Positions 1,263 to 59,318 of a stretch of 64,000 bases of DNA are shown one piece after another. Origin of the DNA: an uncultured Bacilli bacterium. GTDB lineage: Bacteria; Bacillota_I; Bacilli_A; RF39; UBA660. A program made the translations under genes and the position numbers. The stretch spans positions 6,357-70,356 of the forward strand of contig CALVVX010000001.1 in the NCBI GenBank assembly GCA_944364015.1, in the 5' to 3' direction. How positions within the stretch are numbered: position 1 is the stretch's first letter; each line of letters opens with the position of its first letter. The notes under the pieces were generated by a model. It was not told the origin of the DNA and searched no databases. It saw only the letters and a list, made by a program, of their open reading frames with translations.

Positions 1263-1430
1263 TCTATTCCTTCTTTCTTTATTTATTATATATATATTAT
1301 TATTATTATACTGTGGAAACTGTGGAAAACTAACTCTAAGTCTTATAATATAAGGAAAAGTTTTCCACAAGCCTGTGGATAAAATTAAAAGTTATCCACA
1401 TTTATCCACAACTTTATGTGGATAAACTTG
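1263..1430. promoter_or_regulatory. oriC: oriC part 2 (dnaA-dnaN spacer): cluster of at least 7 DnaA boxes plus an AT-rich unwinding element
   Basis: TGTGGAAA x2 at about 1313-1329, TTTTCCACA at about 1361, TGTGGATAA at about 1374, TTATCCACA x2 at about 1392-1410 and TGTGGATAA at about 1418. Upstream is (TA/TTA)n at about 1281-1310, a DUE-like stretch. The layout matches the bipartite Firmicute oriC. Confidence 0.8.
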
Positions 1431-2789: not shown

Positions 2790-3067
2790 ATTACTATTTT
2801 AACACATATTGTGGAAAAAAACGACATAAAATTACATTTTTTTTACTTTTCAACATAGTTTTCCACAAGTTTTCCACAGCTTATCCACAAGCTAAAGCCT
2901 TATATTTCCTAATAAAAACCGACTTTTCCACAGAATGTGTGGATTTTTACTTTCCACAGGCAAAATATTGAGTTTTCCACAGGCTGTTGAAACTGTTGAT
3001 AAAAAATAAAAACCCTTTATTTATAAGGGCTAGATAAAAAAAGTTTTCCACATAACTTGTGGAAATA
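2790..3067. promoter_or_regulatory. oriC: oriC part 1: cluster of about 10 DnaA boxes upstream of dnaA (also the dnaA promoter region)
   Basis: Repeated TTTTCCACA / TTATCCACA / TGTGGAAA(T) 9-mers at about 2810, 2858, 2870, 2881, 2924, 2951, 2974, 3044 and 3058. Confidence 0.8.
3005..3036 (-). terminator. Intrinsic terminator for the HerA-like gene, located inside the DnaA-box cluster
   Basis: On the minus strand the sequence is CCCTTATAAATAAAGGG followed by TTTTTATTTTTT. The palindrome lies about 35 nt downstream of the stop at 3068. Confidence 0.5.
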
Positions 3068-4816
3068 CTATTTTAATTCAACCATCCATTTATCATATAT
3101 AGAAGCATTAGTACTACTAGGCTCTGGATTAGGAAGTTCCATTCTAACAATCATAGGAATTTTCATCATTCTACCAAAAGCAACACATATACCAGATTGT
3201 AAAGCTTTTTGCTTTTCGATAACATCTGCACTAATATTTGGTACCATTTTTCTAATATATTCTAAATCGGTTGGATGATTAATTTTAAATATCAAAAAGT
3301 TACTACATTGAGAAATAACAGTTTCTGATAATTCAGTAGGTCTTTGGGTAATTAAGTCTAAAACTAAACCAAATTTACGTCCTTCTTTAGCAATTCTTTC
3401 AAAAATATTATAACCAAGAATTTCATTATCAAAATCTTTTTGAACATATCTATGAGCTTCTTCTAACATAATATGAATAGGCATTGAACCACGATCAGGC
3501 ATTTGTTTTGAAAACTTAAATAATAATCTTGAATAAATTTTAACCAAAGTTTTTGCAAATCTATCATCAACATCTTCTAAAACAAAATTAATTATTTGAG
3601 CTCTTTTATTATTTTCATAAGCAATAATATCATATATAAATTGATTTAGATCTACAAAGTTATCATATTTAAAAAATCTTGAATTAGAACTATTATTTAA
3701 AGTATGTAACCTAACCTTTAATGCAGTAGCCTCAGTATACGATTTTTCATTTAATAAAAGTCCTTCAGAAATTAAAGCAAAGTTAAGTGCCACTTCTAAA
3801 TCATCTAAATTAAAATATATAGGTACATAATCTTCATTCCATTTAGTTTCATTATCAACAAATTTTTGAATATATTCTGCAATTAAAATACGTTCTACAA
3901 ATTCTCCTTGACTATCAATATCAAAACATTTTCTAAATTGACGAGTATATCCAACACCAGGAACTTCAACATCTAAATTTAAATCTTCTGTATTACAATC
4001 TGTTAAAATAGAAAATATTTGATCCCTTATCCTAGCGGATACTTGATTAGTATACATAACAGAAATAATTGCTTTAGCTATTAAGTGATTTTTATATCTT
4101 TTAGTCTCTTCATCATCTCTAGCAAAAACTGAAACATAACTTAACATTTTTTCTATAACCATTAATTGTGAATAGCTAGTAACATCTAATAAATTAGCAT
4201 AATCATCAACATTAAGTAGCCAAAGTGGTAATTTAACTATATTATAATCAGTATCACCACTTGTAGTATACATCTTATAGTTAAAATTTGCATTATAAGT
4301 ATTAATACTACGAAAAGCATTATCATATTCACTGGTATTATTAAAAATAAATATATTACTATTAAAAGGTATTTTATCTTTCATATTAAATAAATTTTGT
4401 ACTAATCTAGCAACGCCATATGTTTTACCAGAACCAGTATTACCAAAAATAGCACTGTGATTTGAAAACATATCGTCAATATTAATCTTAATTGGATAAT
4501 TATATAAAGGAGAAATACCTAAAGTCATACTTTTAGGATCATTATCTCCCACTATTTCGGCTAGTTCTTCAGTATTAATAATCCTAATCTTCGCAGTCAA
4601 ACTAGGTTTACGAATAATACCACTATAAAATTTACCATTAATAAATTCTCCTAAAAAAGTAATTTTAATGTTCTCTCCATCAACTTCTTCAATTTCTCCT
4701 AATATTTTTTTATCATCTTCAAAAACAACATTAAAATTAAGAAGATCTTCACTAACTACACCTGCAATCTTAACTAAAGCATAATTTTTACTAATTGAAA
4801 TTATTTTTTCAAACAT
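3068..4816 (-). CDS. HerA/FtsK-superfamily (DUF87-like) P-loop ATPase with an N-terminal barrel domain
   Basis: Walker A GNTGSGKTYG, Walker B/DEAH-like IMLEEAHRYV, and a downstream ITQRPTEL...ISQCSNFLIFKINHPTD block typical of HerA-clade ATPases. The N-terminal roughly 90 aa has a HAS-barrel-like pattern. Start set to the third ATG (SD AGAGGG 6 nt upstream). Confidence 0.6.
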   Translation of the reverse strand: MFEKIISISKNYALVKIAGVVSEDLLNFNVVFEDDKKILGEIEEVDGENIKITFLGEFINGKFYSGIIRKPSLTAKIRIINTEELAEIVGDNDPKSMTLGISPLYNYPIKINIDDMFSNHSAIFGNTGSGKTYGVARLVQNLFNMKDKIPFNSNIFIFNNTSEYDNAFRSINTYNANFNYKMYTTSGDTDYNIVKLPLWLLNVDDYANLLDVTSYSQLMVIEKMLSYVSVFARDDEETKRYKNHLIAKAIISVMYTNQVSARIRDQIFSILTDCNTEDLNLDVEVPGVGYTRQFRKCFDIDSQGEFVERILIAEYIQKFVDNETKWNEDYVPIYFNLDDLEVALNFALISEGLLLNEKSYTEATALKVRLHTLNNSSNSRFFKYDNFVDLNQFIYDIIAYENNKRAQIINFVLEDVDDRFAKTLVKIYSRLLFKFSKQMPDRGSMPIHIMLEEAHRYVQKDFDNEILGYNIFERIAKEGRKFGLVLDLITQRPTELSETVISQCSNFLIFKINHPTDLEYIRKMVPNISADVIEKQKALQSGICVAFGRMMKIPMIVRMELPNPEPSSTNASIYDKWMVELK

Positions 4817-4886
4817 ACACATCCCTCTATTCTAAAAAAATTATATCAAAAAAAAATAAAAAAAACAATTAATTATTCAAAAAATA

Positions 4887-4915
4887 TTGACATAACAAAA
4901 TAAAGCATTTATAAT
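4887..4915 (+). promoter_or_regulatory. Sigma-A-type promoter for rpmH-rnpA (TTGACA, 17-nt spacer, TATAAT)
   Basis: Perfect consensus hexamers with a 17-nt spacer, about 35 nt upstream of the rpmH start. Confidence 0.6.
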
Positions 4916-4949: not shown

Positions 4950-5084
4950 ATGAAAAGAACTTATCAACCAAATAATCGAAAAAAAGCTAAAAAACATGGT
5001 TTCTTTGCAAGAAAAGAAGGAAATGTATTAAATAAAAGAAGAGCTAAAAAAAGAAAAAGATTATGTTCTGTTAAGAAAAAATAA
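4950..5084 (+). CDS. rpmH: 50S ribosomal protein L34
   Basis: The 44-aa product MKRTYQPNNRKKAKKHGFFARKEGNVLNKRRAKKRKRLCSVKKK is too short for the ORF track. The SD GGAGGTG is 9 nt upstream. A weak hairpin ACCGAC/GUUGGU plus U-tract follows at 5088-5115. Confidence 0.92.
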   Translation: MKRTYQPNNRKKAKKHGFFARKEGNVLNKRRAKKRKRLCSVKKK

Positions 5085-13797: not shown

Positions 13798-15630
13798 ATG
13801 AATAAATATGAAGTAATCGTAGTAGGAGGAGGACATGCTGGCGTAGAATCAGCATTAGCTACTGCTCGTCTAGGACATAAAACCCTCTTAATAACAGGAA
13901 GAATAGAAAACATTGCAACAATGCCATGTAATCCCTCAATCGGAGGTTCCTCAAAAGGAATAATAGTAAGAGAAATAGATGCCCTAGGAGGAGAAATGGG
14001 AATAAATGCAGATAAAACATTAATCCAAATGAAAATGTTAAACTCCTCAAAAGGACCTGCTGTAAGAAGCTTAAGGGCGCAAGCAGATAAAATAACTTAT
14101 CCAAAAGAAATGCAAAAAACTCTTAAAAATCAAGAAAATTTAGATATAAAAGAAGCAATGGTTGAAGATTTAATAATAGAAAATAAAAAAGTAAAAGGAA
14201 TAATTACAGATAAATTAGAAAAAATAGAATCTAAAATAGTTATTTTAACAACAGGAACTTATTTAAAATCAGACATCTTAATCGGAAGCAGTAGAACAAG
14301 AAGTGGACCACATGATGAAAAGCCTAGTTTACATTTATCAGATAAATTAAAAGAATATGGATTCAAAATACTACGTTTAAAAACAGGAACACCTCCAAGA
14401 ATAGCTAAAGATAGTATTGATTTTAGTAAAGCAAAAGTAGAAGAAGGAGATAAAAAAAGCTATACATTTTCGCATGATATAAAAGCAATATATGATATAA
14501 ATAATCAAGTTCCATGTCATCTAATATATACTACTTTAAAAACTCATGAAATAATATTAAATAACTTAAATAAATCTGCAATGTATGGTGGAATAGAAGA
14601 CATCATAGGAATTGGTCCTAGATATTGTCCTTCTATTGAAGACAAATTAGTAAAATTTAAAGATAAAGATAGACATCAACTATTTTTAGAACCAGAAAGT
14701 TTGTATTATGATGATATATATATCCAAGGATTTTCTACTAGTATGCCAAAAGATATCCAAGAGCAAATGGTAAAAAGTTTACCAGGATTAGAAAACGCTA
14801 AAATATTAAGATATGCCTATGCAATAGAATATGATGCAATATATCCAACACAAATAAATGCCTCACTAGAGACTAAAATAATAGAAAATTTATTTACCGC
14901 AGGACAAATAAATGGCACCAGTGGTTATGAAGAAGCTGCTGCTCAAGGATTAATCGCAGGAATAAATGCTTCATTAAAATTAAGAAACAAAGAACCATTA
15001 ATATTAAAAAGAAATGAAGCATATATTGGCGTTTTAATAGATGATTTAGTTACAAAGGGGACAAAAGAACCATATCGTATGTTAACTTCGCGAGCAGAAT
15101 ATCGATTACTATTACGCCATGATAATGCAGATTTAAGATTAAGAGAATATGGTTATAAAGTAGGATTAATTTCAGAAGAAAAATATCAAAAATTAATTCA
15201 AAAAAAAGAAGATATCAAAAAATTAATAAACGAAATAAAAACAAAGAAAATATCAATAACAAAAGATAATAAAAAAACAAGTCTAAGCATATATGAATAT
15301 TTAAAAACACCATCTACTTCTTTATTAGAAATATTAAAAGAAGATAAAAACTATTCACAAGAAGTAATAGAACAAGTAGAAATACAAGTTAAATACGAAG
15401 GTTACATAAAAAAAGTAGAAAGAGAAGCAGAAAAAATGCTAAAAAACGAATCAAAACAAATACCAAAAGACATAGATTACAATAAAGTAACAAATATAGC
15501 TACAGAAGCTCGTCAGAAATTAATTGAAGTAAAACCTAAAACAATTGGTCAAGCATTAAGAATAAGTGGTGTAAATCCATCAGATATATCAATATTAATG
15601 GTTTATTTAAGGAAGTATTATAATGAATAA
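13798..15630 (+). CDS. mnmG: tRNA uridine 5-carboxymethylaminomethyl modification enzyme MnmG (GidA)
   Basis: FAD-binding N-terminus VVGGGHAGVESALA. Length and synteny match. Confidence 0.95.
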   Translation: MNKYEVIVVGGGHAGVESALATARLGHKTLLITGRIENIATMPCNPSIGGSSKGIIVREIDALGGEMGINADKTLIQMKMLNSSKGPAVRSLRAQADKITYPKEMQKTLKNQENLDIKEAMVEDLIIENKKVKGIITDKLEKIESKIVILTTGTYLKSDILIGSSRTRSGPHDEKPSLHLSDKLKEYGFKILRLKTGTPPRIAKDSIDFSKAKVEEGDKKSYTFSHDIKAIYDINNQVPCHLIYTTLKTHEIILNNLNKSAMYGGIEDIIGIGPRYCPSIEDKLVKFKDKDRHQLFLEPESLYYDDIYIQGFSTSMPKDIQEQMVKSLPGLENAKILRYAYAIEYDAIYPTQINASLETKIIENLFTAGQINGTSGYEEAAAQGLIAGINASLKLRNKEPLILKRNEAYIGVLIDDLVTKGTKEPYRMLTSRAEYRLLLRHDNADLRLREYGYKVGLISEEKYQKLIQKKEDIKKLINEIKTKKISITKDNKKTSLSIYEYLKTPSTSLLEILKEDKNYSQEVIEQVEIQVKYEGYIKKVEREAEKMLKNESKQIPKDIDYNKVTNIATEARQKLIEVKPKTIGQALRISGVNPSDISILMVYLRKYYNE

Positions 15631-16324
15631 GAAAGAATTTATAACCAAAATAGAAGAATTAGGAATAAAACTAGATAACGAAAAAATAGAGCAATTAGAT
15701 TTATATATGAAATTATTACAAACAGAAAATAAAAAATATAATCTAACTGCAATAATTAAAAACGAAGATATATATTTAAAGCATTTTTATGATAGTCTTA
15801 CTATTTTTAAAATAGAAAAATTATCTAATCAAAAAATATGTGATTTAGGAACAGGAGCGGGTTTTCCTGGTTTGGTTTTAAAAATAGTTTTTCCTAATTT
15901 AGATGTAACCTTAATTGAGGCTACTAATAAAAAATGTGAGTTTTTAAAATTAGTTATAAATAAACTAAACTTAAAAAAAATTACAGTAATAAATACTCGT
16001 GCAGAAATTTATGCCAAAAACAACAGAGAAATATTTGATATAGTAACTGCTCGTGCAGTAGCAGCCTTAAAACATTTATTAGAATATGCTATTCCCTTAC
16101 TGAAAGTAAAAGGTTACTTTATACCACTAAAGAGTAATATTGATAATGAAACAATAAATATTGAAAATTATTATAAAAAGTTAAAAATAAGACAAGTAAA
16201 TAAAATAGAGTTTTTTTTACCTAAAGAATTAAGTAAAAGAACTTTAATAAAATATGAAAAATTAGAAAAGACAAATCTAATTTATCCTAGAAATTATAAT
16301 AAAATAAAAGAAAAAGATATATAA
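15623..16324 (+). CDS. rsmG: 16S rRNA (guanine527-N7)-methyltransferase RsmG (GidB)
   Basis: SAM-binding motif DLGTGAGFPG. Canonical position after mnmG. Confidence 0.85.
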   Translation: MNKKEFITKIEELGIKLDNEKIEQLDLYMKLLQTENKKYNLTAIIKNEDIYLKHFYDSLTIFKIEKLSNQKICDLGTGAGFPGLVLKIVFPNLDVTLIEATNKKCEFLKLVINKLNLKKITVINTRAEIYAKNNREIFDIVTARAVAALKHLLEYAIPLLKVKGYFIPLKSNIDNETINIENYYKKLKIRQVNKIEFFLPKELSKRTLIKYEKLEKTNLIYPRNYNKIKEKDI

Positions 16325-16364
16325 ATATAAAAAATATGTTATAATTTTACTATGGAGGATAAAA

Positions 16365-17240
16365 ATGTTAAAAAAGAATAAAAATAAGAAAATTATTATA
16401 CTTATTACAATAATATTAATTGTATTAATAATAGTTATTAGTATATTACTAAATATAAATAACACTAATAAAATTAAAAAATCGGCTATTTTATGGTATA
16501 ACGATCAAAACGGATTATATAATGAAACTACAATTGGAGCATTATATAAAAATGGATATATAAATAGCAATAAATCTTTATTTTTAAAACAAGATTTATC
16601 ATGTAAAATAATAAAAATAGAAAATAACAAAGCTATAATAACAAATGATGTTGATTGTAACTTAAATGATCAGATGCAAAAAATACCTACTTTAATAGTT
16701 AATTTATATAAAACTAGCGATAATTCAAAATATGATCCTAATACATGGACTTCTTCAGATATAGAAGTAAAATTAAGCTATAAAAACAATAATTTATTAG
16801 AAGAAGATATAAATCGTATTTATTTAACAAAAGATTATTCTGAAAACAAAGATGATAATAGCTTAATAATAAGTACTCAAAGTTTTATAGAAGACACTTA
16901 TACTATTAATGTAATGTTAAATGATGGTTCTATTTATAGTAAAGATTTTAGTATAAAAATAGATAAAACTAAACCTATATATATAGATAAAGAGATAACA
17001 AATGAAGATTATAAAGCTTATTTTGAAGATAATGAAAGTAATTTAGATGAAGTGTTATATTATTTAACAGATAATAATACACCTCCTACTAATATAGACC
17101 AATTTAATAAAAAAGAAAATATTTCTTTAGAATCAGATAAAACATATCAAGTCTGGGCAGTAGCCACAAATAATGCAAATTTATATTCTGATTTTATAGA
17201 AATAGGCAATTTTAGTCTTAAAACTTTTGAAGAAGAATAA
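16365..17240 (+). CDS. Membrane-anchored hypothetical protein, paralog of 19703..20554
   Basis: Signal-anchor N-terminus. It shares LYNETTIG.LY, TYTIN..L.DGSIY...F.I.ID.T.P.YI and FEDNES.....LYY..D..TPP.N..QF blocks with the other paralog. The C-terminal module (ID.TKP...D..S..D..LYY...NTP) is Ig-like and also recurs inside the pilin-like protein. Confidence 0.5.
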   Translation: MLKKNKNKKIIILITIILIVLIIVISILLNINNTNKIKKSAILWYNDQNGLYNETTIGALYKNGYINSNKSLFLKQDLSCKIIKIENNKAIITNDVDCNLNDQMQKIPTLIVNLYKTSDNSKYDPNTWTSSDIEVKLSYKNNNLLEEDINRIYLTKDYSENKDDNSLIISTQSFIEDTYTINVMLNDGSIYSKDFSIKIDKTKPIYIDKEITNEDYKAYFEDNESNLDEVLYYLTDNNTPPTNIDQFNKKENISLESDKTYQVWAVATNNANLYSDFIEIGNFSLKTFEEE

Positions 17241-17323
17241 AAAATATACTCTTAAAATACTCTTAAATAGAGTTTTTCTTTTATAAAAATTATGATATAA
17301 TAAAGAAAATAGGAGTGTGCAAT

Positions 17324-19690
17324 ATGAATAAAAAAGGATTTACACTAACAGAACTACTCGTGGCAATAGCAATATTAGCAATAGTAGTATCTTTAGGAAT
17401 CGGGGGTTATATATTGTATCAAAAACAAGCTAAAGAATATGCTTATGAAAGAAGTAAAGATTCTTTAATTTCTTCTGCTATATTATATTATCAAGAAAAA
17501 GAATTAAAACCAATTGCAAGTATAGATGATAAAAATTATTATTGTATAACAGTAAGAGATTTAATAAATTATGGTTATCATGATGAAAAAGAGATAAAAA
17601 ATGTCGATCGAATTACTCTTGATACATATATAAAAATAACAGAAAATATTAATACACAAGCTAGAGAAAAACAAGAATTAATATCAAATGATGTATTAGA
17701 TATATGTAATATTGCATCTCAAAAATTAATAGCTAATACTAAGGAAGTATATTCTAATAAAGTAATAAGTGAAATAGAAAAATTAAAATTTTATAATAAT
17801 TATACTTGTTATTATAAACAAGATAATAATGCTTATATAACTGGAGAATATATAGATGGTGATGAATATGGATATTGTCATTTTAATAATTTGGCTCCAA
17901 ATACTAATTATACATATAAAGCATGTGCTACTGCAGAGTTCAACTCAAAAGAATATGAAGCATGTTCTGATGAGATAAAGGTTACAACAAAATCAATTGA
18001 AACACCAAAAATAGAAGAATATTCATATTTTATATCAAATATAGAATACAAAATAAGTGATGGATATAATTTTAATACTTGGTCTAATGACAAAGTAATT
18101 AATTTAAAATATAATTATGAACAATTAAATCCTCAAACAACTTACATAATGTTTTACGTAGATACGTCTAATACTGTAAAAGTAACTAATACAAATATTT
18201 TAAAATGTAACAATAGTAGTTGTACAACAACATCAAATGTAGCTAAAAATACACTTCTACAAAGTGGTTGGTATGGATTAAAAATAGATGATAATAAAAC
18301 TAAAAGTTTGACACTTAGAATAAATAAATCTAATGTTAATATTCAAGCTAAAATATATGATGGTACTAATAATAGTCAAATAGTAAACTATAAATCAAGT
18401 AAAATAGATAATGTAAAACCAAATATAAGTAGTATAAGTCAAACAAATAACTATAATAGTAGTACTAAACAAAGCCAAATAAAAATAACTACATATGATG
18501 CTGATTCTGGTGTAGATAAAATATATATTAGTAAATCAAATAAAACTCCGACACTAAACTCAACAGGATGGACAACATTATCTAATACAACATATCAAAC
18601 ATATCTTGATATTGAGACAACTTATTATATGTGGGTTATGGATAAAGCTAAAAATATTTCAACTATAAAATCATACTATGTAACAAATCCTGATAAAGAA
18701 CCACCAGTAATAACAACTACAATACCATCATATTGGACTCAAAGTGGTAAAAATGTTCAAATAAAAATAACAGACAATGTAAGTTTAAAAAGTTACAAAG
18801 TATATAAATCAAATAATAGTAGTAATATAGTTGCAAGTAAAACGTATACATCTACTAAAACATCTGATACATTTAGTGTATATTTAGATAATAATAACTA
18901 TACAGTATATGCTTGTGATACTAGTAATAATTGTAGTAGCAAAAACATATCTAAATCATCATTATATATAGATAATACCCCTCCAAGTGTTGGAACTTAT
19001 AGATATAATGGTAGATGTAGTGGTGATAATTTATATTTTAATTACACAATAAGTCCAAAAGATACAGGCTCTGGATCAATATCAGTATATCAATATATAT
19101 CTACTAGTAGTTCCACACCATCTACTAATAGTAATCTTTGGGAATATTATAGTACTTATAATACACTACCATGTGGTAAGACATATTATCTACATATAAA
19201 ATTAGTAGATGCTGTAGGAAATGTAACTAGAACAAGATTAGACAGCAGAAAATGTAATTGTCCTGCGCCAGAACCAGTACAAGATTCAGATTGTAAAATA
19301 ATATGTATTATGAGAAAAGCAAGAGATAATTGGCATGGTGCAAGTAGTTCAGATAAAATTAAATGGCATGCGATTAACTCAATTTTAGCGGGAGACGTAA
19401 AATATCCATCACAAATGATTTATGTTGGAGGTAATGTTGGTTCATGGTACTATAAAGGAGAAGTAATTGAAACATGGTATAACAAAAATTGTAGTCCAAG
19501 CACAACCTGTGAAAATCCAACCTGGGAAAATTACAATAATAAAAGATATGCACAATATAATTTTAATACCAATGTAGCAAGTTGTTCTTTATACGATGAA
19601 CAATATCCAAGTGGAGAATGTAAAAATGGTGTATGTTACTGTTGTAAACGAGGAACTGGATGGTATGGTGGTACTTGCTATGATAAATAA
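17324..19690 (+). CDS. Large type IV pilin-like / pseudopilin-family protein (prepilin-type N-terminal cleavage/methylation domain), Cys-rich C-terminus
   Basis: The N-terminus MNKKGFTLTELLVAIAILAIVVSLG matches the class III (prepilin) signal G|FTLxE plus a hydrophobic helix. The 788-aa body is Ser/Thr/Asn-rich with Ig-like repeat modules. The last roughly 150 aa contain about 16 Cys. The track start at 17315 is a GTG; the ATG at 17324 has the SD AGGAG 8 nt upstream. Confidence 0.6.
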   Translation: MNKKGFTLTELLVAIAILAIVVSLGIGGYILYQKQAKEYAYERSKDSLISSAILYYQEKELKPIASIDDKNYYCITVRDLINYGYHDEKEIKNVDRITLDTYIKITENINTQAREKQELISNDVLDICNIASQKLIANTKEVYSNKVISEIEKLKFYNNYTCYYKQDNNAYITGEYIDGDEYGYCHFNNLAPNTNYTYKACATAEFNSKEYEACSDEIKVTTKSIETPKIEEYSYFISNIEYKISDGYNFNTWSNDKVINLKYNYEQLNPQTTYIMFYVDTSNTVKVTNTNILKCNNSSCTTTSNVAKNTLLQSGWYGLKIDDNKTKSLTLRINKSNVNIQAKIYDGTNNSQIVNYKSSKIDNVKPNISSISQTNNYNSSTKQSQIKITTYDADSGVDKIYISKSNKTPTLNSTGWTTLSNTTYQTYLDIETTYYMWVMDKAKNISTIKSYYVTNPDKEPPVITTTIPSYWTQSGKNVQIKITDNVSLKSYKVYKSNNSSNIVASKTYTSTKTSDTFSVYLDNNNYTVYACDTSNNCSSKNISKSSLYIDNTPPSVGTYRYNGRCSGDNLYFNYTISPKDTGSGSISVYQYISTSSSTPSTNSNLWEYYSTYNTLPCGKTYYLHIKLVDAVGNVTRTRLDSRKCNCPAPEPVQDSDCKIICIMRKARDNWHGASSSDKIKWHAINSILAGDVKYPSQMIYVGGNVGSWYYKGEVIETWYNKNCSPSTTCENPTWENYNNKRYAQYNFNTNVASCSLYDEQYPSGECKNGVCYCCKRGTGWYGGTCYDK

Positions 19691-19702
19691 TAAGGGTGTG
19701 AG

Positions 19703-20554
19703 ATGATGAGAAGAAAAATATTAATACCATTGCTAATACTTATATTACTAGTATTAATTGCCACTATAGCATATGGAATATATTATAATAATAAAAACAA
19801 TAACGATATATTAAATGCTAGTATAAAATGGGCAAAAGATTTAGATCGATTATATAATGAAACAACAATCGGTACTTTATATCATTATGGATATATAAAA
19901 GATAATAAAACACTTTTACTAAAGAAAAATAGAGATTGTCAAGTAATAGAAATATATCAAGATAAAGCAAATTTTAAAGAAGAAGAAAATTGTAACTTAA
20001 ATGAAGAATTAAAAAAAGTACCAATAATACAAATAAAAATGACAAATGTATCAGATAATACAGAATATAGAGAAAATACATGGACTTCTTCTGATGTAAA
20101 AGTAGATGTATACTTTAAAAACAATCAAGCTCCTATTAATATAAGTAATATGTATATAACACTTAATTCACAACCAATAATAACAGAAAACTTAATTATA
20201 AAAGCAGATGAGAATAAAATTGATACATATACTATAAATTTAGTATTAGAAGATGGATCAATATATACTAAAAACTTTGAAATATTAATAGATACAACTG
20301 CTCCTACTTATATAAATGCTGATATGTCTAATAATGATTTTGATGCTATTTTTGAAGATAATGAAAGCGGTGTAGAAAAAATACTATATTATGTATCAGA
20401 TCAAGAAACACCACCATCAAATTTAGAACAATTCCTACCAAAAGAACAATTAGAACTACTAACAGGAATAACATATAATATTTGGGCAGTTGGAGTTAAT
20501 CAAGCAGGTGTTTATTCAGACATAACATATATTGGACAATATAATAAGAATTAA
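19703..20554 (+). CDS. Membrane-anchored hypothetical protein, paralog of 16365..17240
   Basis: See the paralog entry; conserved blocks are visible by eye. Confidence 0.5.
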   Translation: MMRRKILIPLLILILLVLIATIAYGIYYNNKNNNDILNASIKWAKDLDRLYNETTIGTLYHYGYIKDNKTLLLKKNRDCQVIEIYQDKANFKEEENCNLNEELKKVPIIQIKMTNVSDNTEYRENTWTSSDVKVDVYFKNNQAPINISNMYITLNSQPIITENLIIKADENKIDTYTINLVLEDGSIYTKNFEILIDTTAPTYINADMSNNDFDAIFEDNESGVEKILYYVSDQETPPSNLEQFLPKEQLELLTGITYNIWAVGVNQAGVYSDITYIGQYNKN

Positions 20555-20621: not shown

Positions 20622-21761
20622 ATGGAACCAGGAAAAGAAGTTATAAAAATAAGTTTAAATAGCATTATTCCAAATAGATTTCAACCTAGAATATCATTTG
20701 ATGAAGAAGCTTTAAATGAATTAGCAAGTTCAATAAAGACATATGGAATATTACAACCATTAATATTAAGACCTCTAGGAGATAAATATGAAATAATTGC
20801 AGGAGAAAGAAGATATAAAGCTGCAACTATCGCAGGTTTAAGTGAAGTACCAGCTATATTAGTTAACCTAGATGATCAAACAAGTGCAGAACTAGCGATA
20901 ATAGAAAATATACAAAGAAAAGATTTAACCGCAATAGAAGAAGCAAAATCATATAAAAAATTATTAGATTTAGGTAATTATACTCAAGAACAATTAGCGG
21001 CAAAAATGGGAAAAAATCAATCAACAATAGCAAATAAACTACGTCTTTTAACATTATTACCAGAAACTCAAGATGCACTAATGAATAATTCAATATCAGA
21101 AAGACATGCTAGGAGTTTATTACAATTAAAAGACGAACCAGGAAAACAAAGAGAAGTATTAAATCGCATTATAAAAGAAAGATTAACAGTAAAAGATACA
21201 GATGAGTTAATAAAAAATATGATAGGAGAAAAAGATATGAATGAATTTAATCAAAATAGTAACTTAAATCCGCAACCAATGAACTTTAATAACTATGAAA
21301 CTGATAGCTTTGATTTAAACACTTTAAATGATCCAAATTTAACAATACCTACTAACCCACTGCCAAACCAAATATCTAAACCAACAACTAATACAACATT
21401 TGATTTTAGTAGTAGTTTTATACCAAACACTAATACTCAAACTACTACACCAAACTTTGATAGTTTATTAAAAGTAGAAGAACCACCAGTAGTAGAACCA
21501 CCAAAAGCTCCAACAGTTCAAATTGAAAAATCACCAGCCCCTAATCAATATTTTCCATCACTTGAAGAAAAACCTGCTAATATGAACTTTGGACAAGCGT
21601 TTTCTAATCCTATACAAAATAATTCAATTAATATTATGACTGCTATTGATAATACAAAACAATTAATTAGAAACCTTGAATCAGAAGGATATAAAGTTGA
21701 GACAAATGAATTAGATTTACCAGATAGTTATCAAATAACAATAAAAATAAAGAAAAACTAG
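20622..21761 (+). CDS. parB: ParB/Spo0J/Noc-family partition protein with a long low-complexity C-terminal tail
   Basis: N-terminal ParB box (ISLNSIIPNRFQPRISFDEEALNELASSIKTYGILQPLILRP..YEIIAGERRYKAA) and an HTH region. The C-terminal roughly 170 aa are N/P/T/Q-rich. There is no adjacent parA. Confidence 0.75.
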   Translation: MEPGKEVIKISLNSIIPNRFQPRISFDEEALNELASSIKTYGILQPLILRPLGDKYEIIAGERRYKAATIAGLSEVPAILVNLDDQTSAELAIIENIQRKDLTAIEEAKSYKKLLDLGNYTQEQLAAKMGKNQSTIANKLRLLTLLPETQDALMNNSISERHARSLLQLKDEPGKQREVLNRIIKERLTVKDTDELIKNMIGEKDMNEFNQNSNLNPQPMNFNNYETDSFDLNTLNDPNLTIPTNPLPNQISKPTTNTTFDFSSSFIPNTNTQTTTPNFDSLLKVEEPPVVEPPKAPTVQIEKSPAPNQYFPSLEEKPANMNFGQAFSNPIQNNSINIMTAIDNTKQLIRNLESEGYKVETNELDLPDSYQITIKIKKN

Positions 21762-34003: not shown

Positions 34004-35473
34004 CTACAAAACAATAGCAATCATATTAGAAGACCCTTTATTAATTACTTTAGTAAGCGTCTGACCTAATTTATGTCTAATATTATCAGGCATCATTGAT
34101 AATTTTGCTTGTATACCTTCTTGAACTATTTCATCTAAACTACGCCCAAATATTTCACTTTTCCATATATTATTAGATTGAGTGTCTTTAGTTAAATAAT
34201 TAATAAGTTCCTTACTTTGTAATTCAGAACCAATAATAGGTTCAAAAGTACTTTCAACATCTACTTTAATCATATGAATTGAAGGAGCTTTAGCCTTTAA
34301 TTTAATACCATATCTACTACCCTGTTTAATTATTTCAGGTGTTTCTAATTTCATATCCTCAATTGTTGGTGCGGCAATTCCATAACCAGTTTGTTTAACC
34401 ATTTTTAAAGCAGATTTAATTTGACTATATTCTTGTTTAGTTTCCTTAAATTCTTGGAAAATAGACAGTAAATTAGCACGAGAAGTAATATCAGTACCTA
34501 CTATATCATTTAAAACTTGATTATAAAGTCCCATTGGAGCTTCTAAATTAATAGTAACTTCTCCAGAGGAAGTATCAACATCAGAAATATAGGCTTTTGA
34601 AATAAATTCACAGTCATTAAAATGATTAGTAATAGTATCTATATCTTTTAATTTATTAACACTAACTACACTTTCTCTTATTTTCTCAATATATACTTTC
34701 TTTAATTCATGATCTGGATTTAGTATAGCAATCCACTCTGGCATGTTAATTTTAACTTCTTCTACAGGAAATTCGTATAAAGCGCTTTTTAATATATTAT
34801 ACATATCTTTCTCTTGCATACTCTCAACATTAACTGCTAAAACAGGAACTTGGTATTTTTCTTTTAGAGAATTTGCTAAATTTTCAGTTTCTGGTAACAT
34901 AGGATGAGCAGAATTTAATAAAACAATAAAAGGTTTTCCTATACTTTTTAACTCTTCAACAACATTCTCCTCAGCAGTTACATATTCACTTCTTGGTATT
35001 TCTCCAATAGATCCATCAGTAGTAACAACAATACCAATAGTAGAATGATCTTTAATAACTTTCTCTGTTCCTATTTCAGCAGCTTCAACAAAAGGAATTG
35101 CCTCAGAATACCATGGTGTCATAACATATCTAGGGCCATTCTCATCTTCATATCCTTTTGCTGCATCAATAACATAGCCAACACAATCAATCATCCTAAT
35201 ATTACAGCTAAAATCATCAATTCTAACTTTAGTAGCACTAGCGGGTACAAATTTTGGTTCAGTAGTCATAATAGTCTTACCACCAGCAGATTGAGGTAGT
35301 TCATCTAAAGCTCTTTTTTTCTCTGCAATATCTTCAATATTAGGAATAACTAAAGTTTCCATAAACCTCTTAATAAAAGTAGATTTACCAGTTCTAACTG
35401 CTCCAACTACTCCTAAATAAATATCACCACCAGTTCTTTTAGCAATATTTTTTATAACATCATAATTATTCAT
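34004..35473 (-). CDS. spoIVA: Stage IV sporulation protein A (spore coat morphogenetic ATPase)
   Basis: N-terminus GGDIYLGVVGAVRTGKSTFIKRFME...ELPQSAGGKTIMTTEPKFVP matches SpoIVA. Adjacent to hup as in Bacillus. Confidence 0.8.
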   Translation of the reverse strand: MNNYDVIKNIAKRTGGDIYLGVVGAVRTGKSTFIKRFMETLVIPNIEDIAEKKRALDELPQSAGGKTIMTTEPKFVPASATKVRIDDFSCNIRMIDCVGYVIDAAKGYEDENGPRYVMTPWYSEAIPFVEAAEIGTEKVIKDHSTIGIVVTTDGSIGEIPRSEYVTAEENVVEELKSIGKPFIVLLNSAHPMLPETENLANSLKEKYQVPVLAVNVESMQEKDMYNILKSALYEFPVEEVKINMPEWIAILNPDHELKKVYIEKIRESVVSVNKLKDIDTITNHFNDCEFISKAYISDVDTSSGEVTINLEAPMGLYNQVLNDIVGTDITSRANLLSIFQEFKETKQEYSQIKSALKMVKQTGYGIAAPTIEDMKLETPEIIKQGSRYGIKLKAKAPSIHMIKVDVESTFEPIIGSELQSKELINYLTKDTQSNNIWKSEIFGRSLDEIVQEGIQAKLSMMPDNIRHKLGQTLTKVINKGSSNMIAIVL

Positions 35474-49387: not shown

Positions 49388-49645
49388 ATGAATAAAAGAA
49401 TAATACAAAGAGTATTAGAAGAAAGTGAATATATGTTAAAGACAAATCAAACAATAAGACAAATAGCAAAAAAATTTAATGTAAGTAAAAGCACAGTACA
49501 TAAGGATTTAAAAGAAAGATTAATTCAAATAGATGTCAATAAATATAAACAAATAAAACAAATTTTACAATTTCACACTGAAATTAGACATATTCGAGGT
49601 GGAGAATCAACAAAACTAAAATTTATGGTAAAAAATGCTAACTAA
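49388..49645 (+). CDS. spoIIID: Stage III sporulation protein D (small HTH transcription factor)
   Basis: IRQIAKKFNVSKSTVHKDLKERL...IRHIRGGESTKLKF closely matches SpoIIID. Confidence 0.85.
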   Translation: MNKRIIQRVLEESEYMLKTNQTIRQIAKKFNVSKSTVHKDLKERLIQIDVNKYKQIKQILQFHTEIRHIRGGESTKLKFMVKNAN

Positions 49646-52855: not shown

Positions 52856-55800
52856 ATGGATATAATAAATAGTAATTTTACTTATGAACAACAAAAAGTA
52901 CTTAATTTGTTAAAAATAGAAAATATAGAAAAATTCGAAAAAGAAACAAACTTTTTTTCTCATATTAAAAATAGCGAAGAAGCATTAATACAATATGTAA
53001 TAGATAATTATAGTTATTTAGATAGTAGTTTATCATATAATGATTTTTGTAATTTAATAATATCTTTTATAAATGATACACAAAATTTAAGTATTGATTT
53101 AATAAATGAGAAATTTAGAAGACAACATAAAGAACTATTTATTGATAATAATGCTCCTAATGAGTTAAAAGAAGCTTTCTATCACAATAAAATAACATCA
53201 ACTTTAATACATAATCATAAAGAATATATACCGTATTTAATAGATAAAGACTTAATAAATAAAATGAATATGGATATAAAAATAAATATTCCAATAATTA
53301 AAGGAAATGAAATAACATATGTATCATTAAATTTTATTAGTGAATATATAAACTTATATGGCAACAAAGACTTTTTAGAACTATGTTCTAAATATGGAAA
53401 TATGTTATCAAATTTAGAAATTATAACTAAAGAAAATGAAATATTAGAACAAGAAATAATAGAAAAATTAATTAGAGAATCAATAAGTAAAAAAATAATA
53501 AAAGGTTATTTTTCTTATCAATATTTAGAAAATGTATCTGAATTTGTAGAAGAATATCCAACTTTATTTATAAATTTAAAAGAAATAAAAACAATACCAA
53601 AAAAAGAGCAAGAAAGACTAAATACTGCTTTTTATAAAAGACAATTAACTTTTGAAGATATAAGAAAATATCCAGAGTTAGCCAAACATTTAAAAAATAA
53701 GAACTTATTTATAGCTTTTGGTTTACAAAAAAGAAATGATCAAATAAAATTTGCAAGACAAAGAAGAACTCGTGATTATGTAACTCAAGTACCGAAAGAA
53801 TATAGTGATTTAGAATTATTAGAAGTATACGGAAATGAATTTTTTTTAAAACAGTGTTTAAAATATGGAAGATATTTAGAGGGAATAAGTTTTGAATTAC
53901 ATAAAAATTTATCAATAGAAAATAACAAATATGTAGAAAATAATAAAATTATGACATCAAAAGATATGGATAATATAATAGAAAAAATAATAGAAAAGCA
54001 AATACTATTAGGTAACATTCCATATACAGAAGAAGATATTCCAGTAATTTTTAAAAACAAACATCCTGAATTATTTTTAGACAAAGATGCACCAGAAGAA
54101 TTAAAAAAATACTTTTATAATTATAAAAATAATTATCAAATGAGTTTTAAGTTATTAAACAGAAAAAAAGAATGGATAAAATATATAGAAAATAAATCAA
54201 TAAAAACATCAATATTAAGATCTAATATATTCAAAGATGAAATAATAAAATACTTTTCAACATTCAAAGATAAAGCAATAAAATTAGGAATAGAAAAAGC
54301 AGAAACAGTAACAGAAATGATAGAAATGCGAAAAGTAGAACTAATGAAAAAATGGTATGATAAAACAGGACAAAAGTTTTTACCAGATGTTGTTATAATG
54401 AAAAGTTTTCCAATAGAAGATGCAGATAAATTTTTAGTATCAGCTTCTAATTGGAGTAAAATAACTAGAAATAAAAGATTTTATAAATTATTAGAAACAC
54501 GTGAAGCAATTTTAAAACTTGCATATTCATTTGGAATATTTGATTTTGATAAAAGAGGCATACATGAATTAGATGTATTAATTAACCACTTACCTAAAAC
54601 AATAGAGTCAGAATATGATTATATAATAAAAAGATTAGACCATAATATTAACTTCTTTTCTCATAAAGATGAATTTATAAAACAATCAAAAAATAAAGAA
54701 GAAGCAATGGCAAAAACAATAGAATATTTAAAAAATCCTGATTTTTTAGATAAAAATGAAGCTTCTGGTATTTTAATTTTATTAAAAACAATTCAAGAAG
54801 AAAAATTAAATATAGATTTTTCTAAAGATATAATATCACAAATATATAAGCAAAAAAAAGATGGAAAAAGAGTATTAGCAATATCACAACAAGAATATCC
54901 TAAAATAACTAAATTAATTAGAGAAATACTAGAACAATACATAGAATTACCAATATTAACTCCATTTAAAGCCCATCAACTATTTGGAGGATTTATACTT
55001 AAATATGATCCAGAATTTCGTGAATTTTTATTAAAAAATATTAATGAAATATATAAACATTCAGAATATGCTGGATATATATCAAATATTCAAAGACAAT
55101 TTTCAAGCATAAAAGCTGCTAATAGTAATAGAAGTTTAACATTAGAATTAGCGGTTAGTTATGTACAAAAAAATAAATATACACAAGTAAATACAGGAAA
55201 TGAAAGACTTGCGGAAATATCAGCAATTGCAGGATATTCACAGGAAGATTTTAATGTTTTACAGCAAATATATAATTATGGTAAACAAAGAGTTTTTAGT
55301 AGCATACCTAACATAAAAAAACAGCATAAAGAATATAGTTATGAAATACTTAAATTAGATGATCCACTTGCTTTAGCAGTAGGAACATTAACAGATTGTT
55401 GTCAAGCACTAGGAGACGCTGCAGAACTATGTATGGAACATAGTATGGTAGATAAAAATGGAAGAGTTTTTGTAATAAAAGACAAAGAAAATAATATAAT
55501 TGCTCAAAGTTGGGTATGGAGAAATAAAGAAACTTTATGTTTTGATAACATAGAGATACCTAATAAAGCACTAAAAAGAGCTTCAAAAAATGAAGAAGAT
55601 CTTAATTATGAAATATTTAATTTGTATAAAGAAGCTGCTAGAGAGCTCATAGAATATGATAACAAAATTTATAAAAAGTTATTAGACAAAAGACAAATAA
55701 CACTACAGCAATATAATGGACTAAAATTAAGCAAAGTAACTGTAGGACTTGGATATAATGATATAGCAAAAGTAATAAAAGAAAATACAGAATTAGAAAA

Positions 55801-56407
55801 AGATAAAATATCAAGACCAATATCATTCGAAGCACCGGTAAAATTAGAAAGCTCACTATATATTACAGATTCAAAAACTCAATATATTCTAGCTAAAACA
55901 AAAGAAGAACATGAAAAATATAATGGACGTGAAATAGCAGTTTATAATGATGAATATGCTATATACACAGATAGTAATTTTAACGAAATAAATTTACTAA
56001 CTTTAGAAAAACTAGAAGCAATAACAAAAGAAAAAACTACAAACTTAAATACAAGTTATATAAACAAAGAAAAAAAGATTATTAGCCAGTTAGCACAAAT
56101 ATATAATTTAGATTCTAATGAAACAAGAATAATTATGAATCCAAATTTTGCAATTATATATGAAAAAAGTCAAACAAAAATCAAAATTGCAGATTTATTA
56201 TTCAATATTAAAATAAATACTGATCAACAACAAAAAGATATAGAAAACAAAGTAGCTATGCAAATAAAATTAGCCATAAATCAAATTGCAGATAATAAAA
56301 AGATTGATATTAGTAATCTTAATCAAAATCAACAAAATATGTATAAAAAAGCATTAAATATAGATAAACTAATAGAAGAAGAAAGGGGTATAAAGTATGT
56401 TAGATGA
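52856..56407 (+). CDS. Large (1183 aa) uncharacterised cytoplasmic protein with an internal duplicated segment and a Cys-cluster region
   Basis: Internal repeat: HKELFIDNNAPNELKEAFYHNK versus HPELFLDKDAPEELKKYFYNYK. The C-terminal third has TLTDCCQALGDAAELCMEHSMVD and IAQSWVWRNKETLCFDNIEI. No TM segments. Confidence 0.4.
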   Translation: MDIINSNFTYEQQKVLNLLKIENIEKFEKETNFFSHIKNSEEALIQYVIDNYSYLDSSLSYNDFCNLIISFINDTQNLSIDLINEKFRRQHKELFIDNNAPNELKEAFYHNKITSTLIHNHKEYIPYLIDKDLINKMNMDIKINIPIIKGNEITYVSLNFISEYINLYGNKDFLELCSKYGNMLSNLEIITKENEILEQEIIEKLIRESISKKIIKGYFSYQYLENVSEFVEEYPTLFINLKEIKTIPKKEQERLNTAFYKRQLTFEDIRKYPELAKHLKNKNLFIAFGLQKRNDQIKFARQRRTRDYVTQVPKEYSDLELLEVYGNEFFLKQCLKYGRYLEGISFELHKNLSIENNKYVENNKIMTSKDMDNIIEKIIEKQILLGNIPYTEEDIPVIFKNKHPELFLDKDAPEELKKYFYNYKNNYQMSFKLLNRKKEWIKYIENKSIKTSILRSNIFKDEIIKYFSTFKDKAIKLGIEKAETVTEMIEMRKVELMKKWYDKTGQKFLPDVVIMKSFPIEDADKFLVSASNWSKITRNKRFYKLLETREAILKLAYSFGIFDFDKRGIHELDVLINHLPKTIESEYDYIIKRLDHNINFFSHKDEFIKQSKNKEEAMAKTIEYLKNPDFLDKNEASGILILLKTIQEEKLNIDFSKDIISQIYKQKKDGKRVLAISQQEYPKITKLIREILEQYIELPILTPFKAHQLFGGFILKYDPEFREFLLKNINEIYKHSEYAGYISNIQRQFSSIKAANSNRSLTLELAVSYVQKNKYTQVNTGNERLAEISAIAGYSQEDFNVLQQIYNYGKQRVFSSIPNIKKQHKEYSYEILKLDDPLALAVGTLTDCCQALGDAAELCMEHSMVDKNGRVFVIKDKENNIIAQSWVWRNKETLCFDNIEIPNKALKRASKNEEDLNYEIFNLYKEAARELIEYDNKIYKKLLDKRQITLQQYNGLKLSKVTVGLGYNDIAKVIKENTELEKDKISRPISFEAPVKLESSLYITDSKTQYILAKTKEEHEKYNGREIAVYNDEYAIYTDSNFNEINLLTLEKLEAITKEKTTNLNTSYINKEKKIISQLAQIYNLDSNETRIIMNPNFAIIYEKSQTKIKIADLLFNIKINTDQQQKDIENKVAMQIKLAINQIADNKKIDISNLNQNQQNMYKKALNIDKLIEEERGIKYVR

Positions 56408-58448: not shown

Positions 58449-59318
58449 TTACTTTGTATCTTTTATATCATCATGATAAAAATAATTAACTACAATAGGA
58501 TTATTACAAAAATCTCTATCGAAAACATTATTATCTTTAACATATAATAATTTTTCTCTATCACAAAAATCTTTAATTTCTTTGTCAAGTTTTTTCCAAT
58601 AATCAACCTTATTATCAATATAAATTTCTTTATATAAATTATACAAGTGAGGATAATAATTAGTTATATAATTTAATATTTTTAACTTAAAATCATCCCT
58701 TAAATTAAGCTTTTCAAGCCATATAGTATTACAGCAATATCTACATTTTTTAATAATTGCAATAACATCAGTAATACCAGGAAAAATTGGAGAAATAAAA
58801 CAAGTAGTTTTAATTTTCTCATCATAAAACGTCTTCATACAAGAAATTCTTCTTTCAATAGAAACAGCATTATCCATTTCTTTTCTAAAATCTTCATCTA
58901 ATGTATTAATAGACCAAGAAACATTAATATTTTTAAATTGTTTAATTAAATTTAAGTCTCTTAATATTAAATCAGATTTAGTAGAAATATTTACATTTAT
59001 ATCAAAATCTTTAATTTCTTCTAAAAAAGCTTTAGTTCTTTCATATCTTAACTCAATAGGTTGATAAGGATCAGTAACAGAACCAATAAAAATAGATTTT
59101 TTATTATATTTTTTAAAAATTTTAATTGGATTCCAAAATTTAACATCAACAAACTCTCCCCATTCTTCTGAATGACCAGTGAACTTTTTCATAAAAGAAG
59201 CATAACAATATTTACATCCATGTAAACAGCCAATATAAGGATTGACTGCATAATCATAAGCTAATAAATTTGATTTTGAAATAATGTTCTTAACTTCTAT
59301 TTCTTTTATATTATTCAT
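58449..59318 (-). CDS. Radical SAM protein, SplB-like DNA-repair photolyase family
   Basis: CLHGCKYC (a Cx3Cx2C radical-SAM cluster motif) near the N-terminus. Size and neighbours suggest a COG1533-type protein. Confidence 0.55.
   Translation of the reverse strand: MNNIKEIEVKNIISKSNLLAYDYAVNPYIGCLHGCKYCYASFMKKFTGHSEEWGEFVDVKFWNPIKIFKKYNKKSIFIGSVTDPYQPIELRYERTKAFLEEIKDFDINVNISTKSDLILRDLNLIKQFKNINVSWSINTLDEDFRKEMDNAVSIERRISCMKTFYDEKIKTTCFISPIFPGITDVIAIIKKCRYCCNTIWLEKLNLRDDFKLKILNYITNYYPHLYNLYKEIYIDNKVDYWKKLDKEIKDFCDREKLLYVKDNNVFDRDFCNNPIVVNYFYHDDIKDTK

Follow-up and report, generated by a model that had tools for sequence, protein, structure and literature searches.

What does a gene for a HerA-type ATPase do beside a bacterial replication origin, and how did it come to be there? 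The question is raised by a 64-kb stretch of contig CALVVX010000001.1 (assembly GCA_944364015.1) from an uncultured Bacilli bacterium, analysed here as a whole and referred to as the window. Its gene order runs from dnaN and dnaA, both on the minus strand, through the DnaA boxes and a minus-strand HerA gene to rpmH, rnpA, yidC and jag on the plus strand. The original prediction, made from the letters of the sequence, had described HerA as wedged between rpmH and dnaA, and this arrangement is confirmed, HerA being the sole addition to an origin region that otherwise follows the canonical Firmicute plan. At present, bacterial HerA ATPases are seen almost exclusively as components of two-gene systems, namely NurA-HerA, Sir2-HerA and DUF4297-HerA. 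The explanation that we favour, and consider reasonably probable, is that the gene encodes an intact HerA-type ATPase, probably derived from a Sir2-HerA system and retained as a core chromosomal gene, and that its position at the origin is inherited synteny.

The family, the fold and the integrity of the motifs of this protein are established. In a Pfam scan, the HerA central domain DUF87 (PF01935) was matched with 73 bits (cut-off 23.2, E 5e-20), and the PADLOC HerA model PDLC04102 covers residues 50-582 (E 7e-105). The best NCBIfam models were two 'anti-phage-associated HerA' (HerA_antiphage) equivalogs, for which the protein scored 156.5 and 154.1 bits where 800 and 850 are required. Every match in a sequence search of the PDB was a HerA, with members of DUF4297-HerA and Sir2-HerA systems ahead of the more remote Sulfolobus HerA. 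An AlphaFold2 model built from a 30-sequence alignment (pLDDT 88.9, pTM 0.87) comprises an N-terminal HAS-type beta-barrel at about residues 1-112 (strands at 2-112), a RecA-like core and a helical-bundle insert at about residues 203-400 (helices at 203-398). When the model was compared with the PDB by Foldseek, the S. aureus Sir2-HerA ATPase SaHerA (8yhx_A) ranked at the top with TM scores of 0.74/0.76 at 21% identity, followed by other Sir2-HerA and DUF4297-HerA structures and then by Sulfolobus HerA, with TM scores of 0.6-0.76 to HerA structures along the whole length. The protein is a bona fide HerA-clade ATPase of the 'anti-phage' architecture and not FtsK, VirB4 or TraG; the Pfam, NCBIfam, PADLOC, PDB and Foldseek matches thus bear out the family originally assigned to it.

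All three sequence blocks that the original prediction had pointed out are present, with Walker A at G125-N-T-G-S-G-K-T132, Walker B at L451-E-E-A-H-R-Y457 and a third block at T490-Q-R-P493. Among 13 dnaA-linked orthologues, the GNTGSGKT, LEEAHRY and TQRP blocks are invariant or nearly so, and K131 of Walker A, E452 and E453 of Walker B, R480, Q491 and R492 are invariant throughout the wider subfamily of HerAs that have no linked partner gene, called the partner-less subfamily below. The long open reading frame (ORF) spans 3068-4822 and ends in a TAG stop (3068-3070). Translation probably begins at the ATG of 4814-4816 (MFEKII...), giving 582 residues: a further in-frame ATG upstream (4820-4822) runs into the ribosome-binding site (RBS) AGAGGGA, and all orthologues begin with MFE or MFK.

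Synteny and selection are established just as plainly. When one genome of each GTDB species was scanned, 15 loci were recovered, all from metagenome-assembled genomes of uncultured gut or rumen Bacilli or 'Erysipelotrichaceae'. In a tblastn search with the window proteins, the order HerA, dnaA, dnaN was found at all 14 loci that extend past the 3' end of HerA (L008 ends there), and jag-yidC-rnpA-rpmH were also present on the other side at 11 of the species-level loci, while L015 keeps rpmH before its contig ends. The same order was found in 8 metagenome loci, in 3 further contigs (one of 927 kb) and in additional copies, so that 30 of 30 orthologous loci examined, with HerA identities of 64-95%, read HerA to dnaA to dnaN. 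The further contigs show the order parB-rsmG-mnmG-mnmE-x-jag-yidC-rnpA-rpmH on one side and HerA, dnaA, dnaN, comK-like, recF, gyrB and gyrA on the other, again with HerA as the sole extra gene. At five loci (L004, L005, L013, L016 and L020) the rpmH side has been swapped for other genes, and HerA still adjoins dnaA.

The full-length HerA ORF is intact at every locus, and the identity of HerA across orthologous loci (64-95%) matches or exceeds that of DnaA (60-97%). For the closest pair, the window and L014, the ratios of nonsynonymous to synonymous substitution rates (NG86 dN/dS) were 0.043 for HerA, 0.029 for DnaA, 0.060 for YidC, 0.105 for DnaN, 0.17 for Jag and 0.375 for RnpA; more distant pairs keep the same ranking, with synonymous divergence approaching saturation. 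HerA is therefore under housekeeping-grade, indeed DnaA-grade, purifying selection. Since all orthologous loci examined keep the order HerA, dnaA, dnaN, the gene has been fixed beside dnaA for as long as the dnaA-linked clade has existed. The comparison of the dnaA-rpmH interval among relatives argues against a recent insertion, the order being kept in 30 loci, and the presence of an additional gene in that interval does not in itself imply recent arrival. Strict conservation as a known replication factor, a prospect raised at the outset, applies in part: the position is conserved within the clade, but no known replication factor is involved.

The lack of a linked partner is equally a matter of observation. 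Hidden Markov models (HMMs) of the SIR2 and DUF4297 partners found nothing (best E 0.2) in the six-frame ORFs of the window and of about 75 partner-less loci, PADLOC matched none of the nine uncharacterised window proteins, and a profile of the subfamily found a single HerA in the window. No NurA-type gene adjoins HerA, because its immediate neighbours are rpmH and dnaA. With neither a SIR2 or DUF4297 homologue in the window nor a NurA-type neighbour, the original description of a stand-alone HerA holds. Among plasmids, the nearest relative has 30.7% identity and is part of a Listeria operon annotated 'SIR2 family protein + DUF87'. A scan of IMG/VR returned pattern matches and no true relative, and matches in the INPHARED phages were confined to partial terminase- or HerA-like fragments. 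The distribution is not the patchy one of defence genes on islands, plasmids and prophages; HerA keeps a fixed position and is flanked by housekeeping genes.

The wider family places the dnaA-linked gene in context. In an exhaustive HMMER search of 1.84 billion cluster representatives, full-length clusters (50% identity) with E < 1e-110 numbered only about a dozen, and 192 clusters had E < 1e-30; a metagenome scan with the orthologue alignment gave 80 loci ranging from 82% down to 24% identity. The records of the relatives carry only the names 'DUF87 domain-containing protein' or 'ATP-binding protein [Bacilli bacterium]'. Clustering of the neighbouring ORFs at the metagenome loci, together with Pfam and PADLOC scans, resolved three tiers of identity. 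At 64% or above, HerA lies at dnaA. Between 39 and 61%, a full-length HerA with the same motifs is never found at dnaA and is instead co-directional with its surroundings in housekeeping neighbourhoods that have no neighbour in common (ftsY-small ORF-ylxM-HerA-ffh, HerA-sepF-divIVA, HerA-sufC-sufD-sufS, gatA-gatB-HerA, HerA-HIT and HerA-GH31); in the ylxM-ffh group, HerA begins 11-14 nt after ylxM. Between 24 and 32%, a co-directional SIR2_2 or DUF4297 gene (PADLOC 5e-151) lies upstream of HerA. The partner-less loci all have a GC content of 23-31%, and the SIR2-linked loci one of 33-65%.

In a neighbour-joining tree, the partner-less HerAs form one clade with a bootstrap of 100/100, as do the dnaA-linked clade (100/100) and the group made up of the dnaA-linked, L023 and GH31-linked HerAs (100/100). 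This phylogeny is an established part of the picture, and genomic position tracks it, indicating that HerA is vertically inherited. A further split, at 99/100, separates the partner-less HerAs and two SIR2-linked groups from a third SIR2-linked group and the DUF4297-linked group. Because SIR2-linked HerAs fall on both sides of this split, loss of Sir2 on the partner-less stem would be the more parsimonious course of events.

The features of the origin region are collected in the table below. The two DnaA-box clusters form a bipartite, B. subtilis-like oriC, a layout familiar from Bacillus subtilis. Across the whole window there are 19 TTWTNCACA sites against 9.1 expected, and their clustering is far beyond chance; equivalent clusters occur in the orthologous HerA-dnaA spacers. 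A box scan found no DnaA box in the 127-bp spacer between HerA and rpmH. The GC content of the window is 23.7%. An Rfam scan of the entire window returned no family at gathering score (no tRNA, rRNA, riboswitch, RNase P RNA or other), and the spacers therefore contain no RNA element by this measure.

Features of the origin region, with positions in the window.
Feature	Positions	Strand	Remarks
dnaN	147-1262	minus	
Second DnaA-box cluster, dnaA-dnaN spacer	1321-1425		6 perfect TTWTNCACA sites
dnaA	1414-2775	minus	Always directly downstream of HerA, in the same orientation, in the dnaA-linked clade
Upstream oriC DnaA-box cluster, between HerA stop and dnaA start	2810-3066		7 perfect TTWTNCACA sites (2810-3052) plus variants
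Second hairpin and T-run	3001-3031	minus	Stem 3011-3031, T-run 3001-3010; intrinsic-terminator candidate
Inverted pair of DnaA-box-like sites	3045-3065	minus	Predicted hairpin on the HerA transcript (dG -9.9 kcal/mol), then T-run; first terminator candidate
Stand-alone HerA-family ATPase gene	3068-4816	minus	ORF, 582 aa; between rpmH and the upstream DnaA-box cluster
Candidate HerA promoter and RBS	4822-4848	minus	Extended -10 TGATATAAT at 4840-4848; AGAGGGA at 4822-4828, 5 nt before the ATG
rpmH	4950-5084	plus	Perfect TTGACA-17-TATAAT promoter at 4887-4915, divergent from HerA

Direct reading of the sequence points to the extended -10 element at 4840-4848 as the likely HerA promoter, which a consensus scan missed because its -35 element is poor. 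At the other end of the gene, the stop codon lies 2 nt away from the box-like TGTGGAAAT at 3058-3066, and TGTGGAAAT and the box at 3044-3052 together make up the inverted repeat at 3045-3065. The hairpin at 3011-3031 is flanked by the DnaA boxes 2973-2981 and 3044-3052. The original prediction was correct in placing a hairpin amid the boxes and erred in placing the stop inside a box rather than next to a box-like site. Two tandem terminator candidates thus lie no more than about 60 nt past the HerA stop, and an RNAfold-based scan for a hairpin followed by a T-run found such an element 13-62 nt past the stop, ahead of the box cluster, at most orthologous loci. The HerA transcript of the window is predicted to reach only the first two box-like sites, those of the inverted pair, which is not a conserved feature. 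Given its own candidate promoter and the terminators between its stop and the box cluster, HerA is, on sequence grounds, an insulated monocistronic unit. The transcription into oriC that had been proposed would accordingly be marginal at most.

A separate observation concerns the boxes of one subclade. In its HerA-dnaA spacers (L009:7761-8135, L010:7761-8145, L011:7755-8155, L015:2028-2365, L021:7635-7935 and L001:7752-8091), the 9-mer TTATCAACA, in 4-5 copies, replaces the TTWTCCACA of window positions 2810-3052. The DnaA domain IV signature GGRDHSTI reads GGRNHSTI at 5 of these 6 loci; the altered D is a residue that we take to be equivalent to the base-contacting D433 of E. coli. The covariation between 9-mer and DnaA is imperfect because L001 retains the D, and the TTATCAACA subclade may represent a lineage-specific shift in DnaA-box specificity.

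The Sir2-HerA systems (SaHerA, 8yho/8yhx; E. coli Nezha, 8j4u/8su9; the Listeria operon) provide the closest reference. They have in common with the window HerA the three-domain architecture and the Walker A, Walker B and QRP motifs, the SIR2-linked HerAs are its nearest branches in the tree, and its best structural match (TM 0.74-0.76) is among them. The description of SaHerA names the same three domains, an N-terminal beta-barrel, a RecA-like ATPase and a helical bundle; it further reports that apo SaHerA is an inactive trimer which becomes a hexamer only with its Sir2 partner, and that its N-terminal residues 1-35 are required to bind and activate Sir2 (PMC11514289). In contrast, the window HerA is only 21-31% identical to these proteins, has a SIR2 gene neither adjacent nor nearby, and cannot be aligned with SIR2-linked HerAs over its first ~50 residues. 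It is also vertically inherited, embedded among housekeeping genes and strongly constrained, whereas Sir2-HerA systems are patchy and borne on plasmids or islands.

The other reference systems are further removed. DUF4297-HerA (9c1m, 8ziq) provides the best PDB sequence match (9c1m, 3e-42) and has its fold in common with the window HerA, but the window has no DUF4297 gene and the DUF4297-linked HerAs lie beyond the 99/100 split. The HerA-NurA motor of double-strand-break resection (Sulfolobus HerA 4d2i; Deinococcus/Thermus HerA) has the HerA-clade hexameric translocase fold in common with it, and a chromosomal, repair-type role is the sort of function proposed here. It is nevertheless more distant (Sulfolobus HerA E 1e-27; NCBIfam NF040937 119 bits against 800, NF040819 90 against 970), no NurA gene is adjacent in the window, and the helical insert of the window HerA is of the larger kind that characterises anti-phage HerAs. 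FtsK/SpoIIIE belongs to the same superfamily of ring ATPases that pump double-stranded DNA and gives a weak Pfam match around Walker A, but the model of the window HerA has neither an N-terminal membrane domain nor a C-terminal gamma (KOPS-reading) domain.

Several other explanations have to be weighed against retention as a core gene. HerA might be an orphan defence ATPase, either the motor or scaffold of an abortive-infection system whose Sir2, nuclease or other effector is unlinked, or a defence protein acting alone. All of its closest characterised relatives in sequence and fold are anti-phage HerAs, its sister clades are SIR2-linked, and SaHerA requires a partner to become an active hexamer (PMC11514289), all of which would fit such a role. 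We nevertheless consider it unlikely. No SIR2 or DUF4297 homologue was found in the window or the ~75 related loci, nor a PADLOC match for the nine other window proteins; the ~155 bits obtained fall far short of the HerA_antiphage cut-offs of 800-850; and the gene was not found in the phage and IMG/VR collections, nor on plasmids above 31% identity. Its position tracks phylogeny within a narrow, AT-rich group of hosts, its dN/dS is on par with that of DnaA and YidC, and relatives are embedded in housekeeping operons, as close as 11-14 nt behind ylxM. This vertical, housekeeping-like pattern disfavours the defence ATPase with a partner elsewhere that had been suggested from the sequence. As for a decaying remnant of an integrative and conjugative element (ICE), prophage or defence island inserted beside oriC, HerA/FtsK-superfamily ATPases are indeed common on mobile elements and Pfam gives weak matches to FtsK_SpoIIIE (PF01580; 20.4 bits against 24, residues 108-148 only) and AAA_10 (17.1 against 27.5), but these remain below their gathering thresholds. 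No integrase, relaxase, transposase, repeat boundary or transfer gene lies within 10 kb on either side of the HerA loci, the local GC content is that of the host, and the ORF is intact at every locus, under DnaA-grade selection and in a position kept in 30 loci. The remnant, likewise an early suggestion, is effectively refuted. A conjugative coupling or VirB4-type ATPase, set beforehand as the outcome that would speak against a HerA, was rejected as well: the profile matches are below threshold, weak for AAA_10 and for TraB (E 0.17), and no transfer genes occur within the same 10 kb.

The location of the gene invites a role at the origin itself, where a HerA ring might remodel the DnaA-oriC complex, help to unwind or segregate origins, or tune dnaA through read-through. 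The linkage of HerA and dnaA at 30 of 30 loci, though the rpmH side was rearranged at least 2 times, the end of the gene 2 nt from a DnaA-box pair, and the presence of ParB without an adjacent ParA/Soj are all in keeping with it. Against it, relatives of 39-61% identity with the same length and motifs are encoded at unrelated loci in sister lineages (by ylxM-ffh, sepF, sufC and gatB), and HerA therefore need not be encoded near the origin. In addition, the HerA promoter region is free of DnaA boxes, most orthologues have terminators ahead of the boxes, and no extra DNA-binding or DnaA-interaction domain was seen in the model. A translocase acting on the origin, as first envisaged, is thus very unlikely, the family not being tied to oriC. 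We would give only a slender chance to the related idea that a defence-type HerA was recruited to the chromosome cycle and works at or near the origin, extruding or segregating newly made origin DNA or remodelling DnaA-oriC, and hence was never separated from dnaA; such a HerA may serve as a stand-in for a missing ParA/Soj- or FtsK-like activity. Since the relatives lie at other loci and the tie to oriC is one of position, not shared by the family at large, the position beside oriC is not evidence of action on oriC, and no new route into the control of replication initiation emerges from it.

Retention of a Sir2-HerA-derived ATPase as a core gene would then have proceeded as follows. By homology, HerA would form a hexameric ring that moves along double-stranded DNA using ATP. 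The partner-less subfamily is a small, monophyletic group restricted to uncultured Bacilli of gut and rumen with very AT-rich genomes (23-31% GC). It probably arose from a Sir2-HerA-type system by loss of the effector gene, and in the host lineages HerA has since been passed on vertically, in the manner of a core chromosomal gene. In the ancestor of the dnaA-linked clade, the resident HerA would have relocated to the interval between rpmH and the upstream oriC box cluster, an old and lineage-specific event, and then stayed linked to dnaA as an independent transcription unit whose terminators would insulate the DnaA boxes. The location near the origin would accordingly be inherited synteny, from which a high gene dosage may follow. 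In the cell, HerA most likely serves a chromosomal DNA transaction, either break processing and recombination or DNA translocation at segregation, and would do so without a Sir2 or DUF4297 effector; this housekeeping role is inferred, as are hexamer formation, DNA translocation and the loss of Sir2.

Some points weigh against this explanation. Hexamer formation and DNA translocation are here attributed to the protein by homology only. Because SaHerA is an inactive trimer without Sir2, a partner-less HerA might need another activator or must self-assemble. An effector may also be encoded elsewhere in the genome, the window covering 64 kb. The HerA tree is unrooted and was built without archaeal HerA, so that derivation from Sir2-HerA is the more parsimonious reading of it. 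Finally, the rpmH side has been rearranged at least twice while HerA and dnaA have never come apart, a linkage that selection for closeness to the origin could explain.

In the literature on HerA with dnaA or rpmH and on stand-alone or orphan HerA, we found no description of the partner-less lineage. A whole lineage keeps a HerA of anti-phage architecture without a linked effector, under DnaA-like constraint and in a core-operon context. If the favoured reading is true, it offers a natural example of an immune-system motor that was retained, and probably exapted, for a cellular function, and a system in which the action of a HerA ring on its own could be studied cleanly. For annotation, DUF87/HerA matches in gut Bacilli of this lineage should not be counted as defence systems.

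Some relatives differ from the window HerA in carrying tails. The partner-less HerAs P0122, P0123, P0125, P0127 and P0129, as well as L030, L032-L036 and L045, mostly from the ylxM-ffh group, have apparently disordered N- or C-terminal tails of 80-360 residues rich in S, N, T and P, with repeats such as NPALDFG (x3), xLV[ST]F (x5) and PKTDTGVPLV (x4-5). The tails of these relatives contain no enzymatic domain and no universally conserved terminal motif, and the window HerA is tail-less. Sliding-clamp binding by the xLV[ST]F or NPALDFG repeats was considered and dropped as unsupported. At one ylxM-HerA-ffh locus (L101:9916-10776, GCA_022800535.1), a PDDEXK_2 gene (Rpn/transposase-like nuclease) directly follows HerA and precedes ffh; it was not seen at the other loci of the group. 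Downstream of dnaN, a gene with a ComK domain (PF06338) lies between dnaN and recF at L097:15000-15452 and in the same position in L098 and L099, where B. subtilis presumably has a small S4-like gene.

Elsewhere in the window, a ParB gene (ParB_N and HTH_ParB domains) at 20622-21761 on the plus strand encodes 379 residues, compared with 506-535 in relatives, and ParA/Soj is not adjacent. The interval between rsmG and parB (15623-20554) holds a membrane protein, a 791-residue protein with a prepilin-type N-methylation motif and another small membrane protein. A 1183-residue ORF at 52856-56407 (plus strand) was unmatched in Pfam, NCBIfam and PADLOC at E <= 0.001, and the 318-residue ORF that follows it has only a partial aldehyde-dehydrogenase/ProA-like match. 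The minus-strand gene at 58449-59318 encodes a radical SAM protein that falls just short of the cut-off for 'radical SAM mobile pair protein B' (TIGR04470), with 369.7 bits against 410. SpoIVA is encoded complete, with all three Pfam domains (E 9e-111), at 34004-35473 on the minus strand, and an 85-residue ORF at 49388-49645 on the plus strand is SpoIIID-like by eye. In view of these two genes, the host, with its GC content of 23.7% and apparently small genome, is probably an endospore former.

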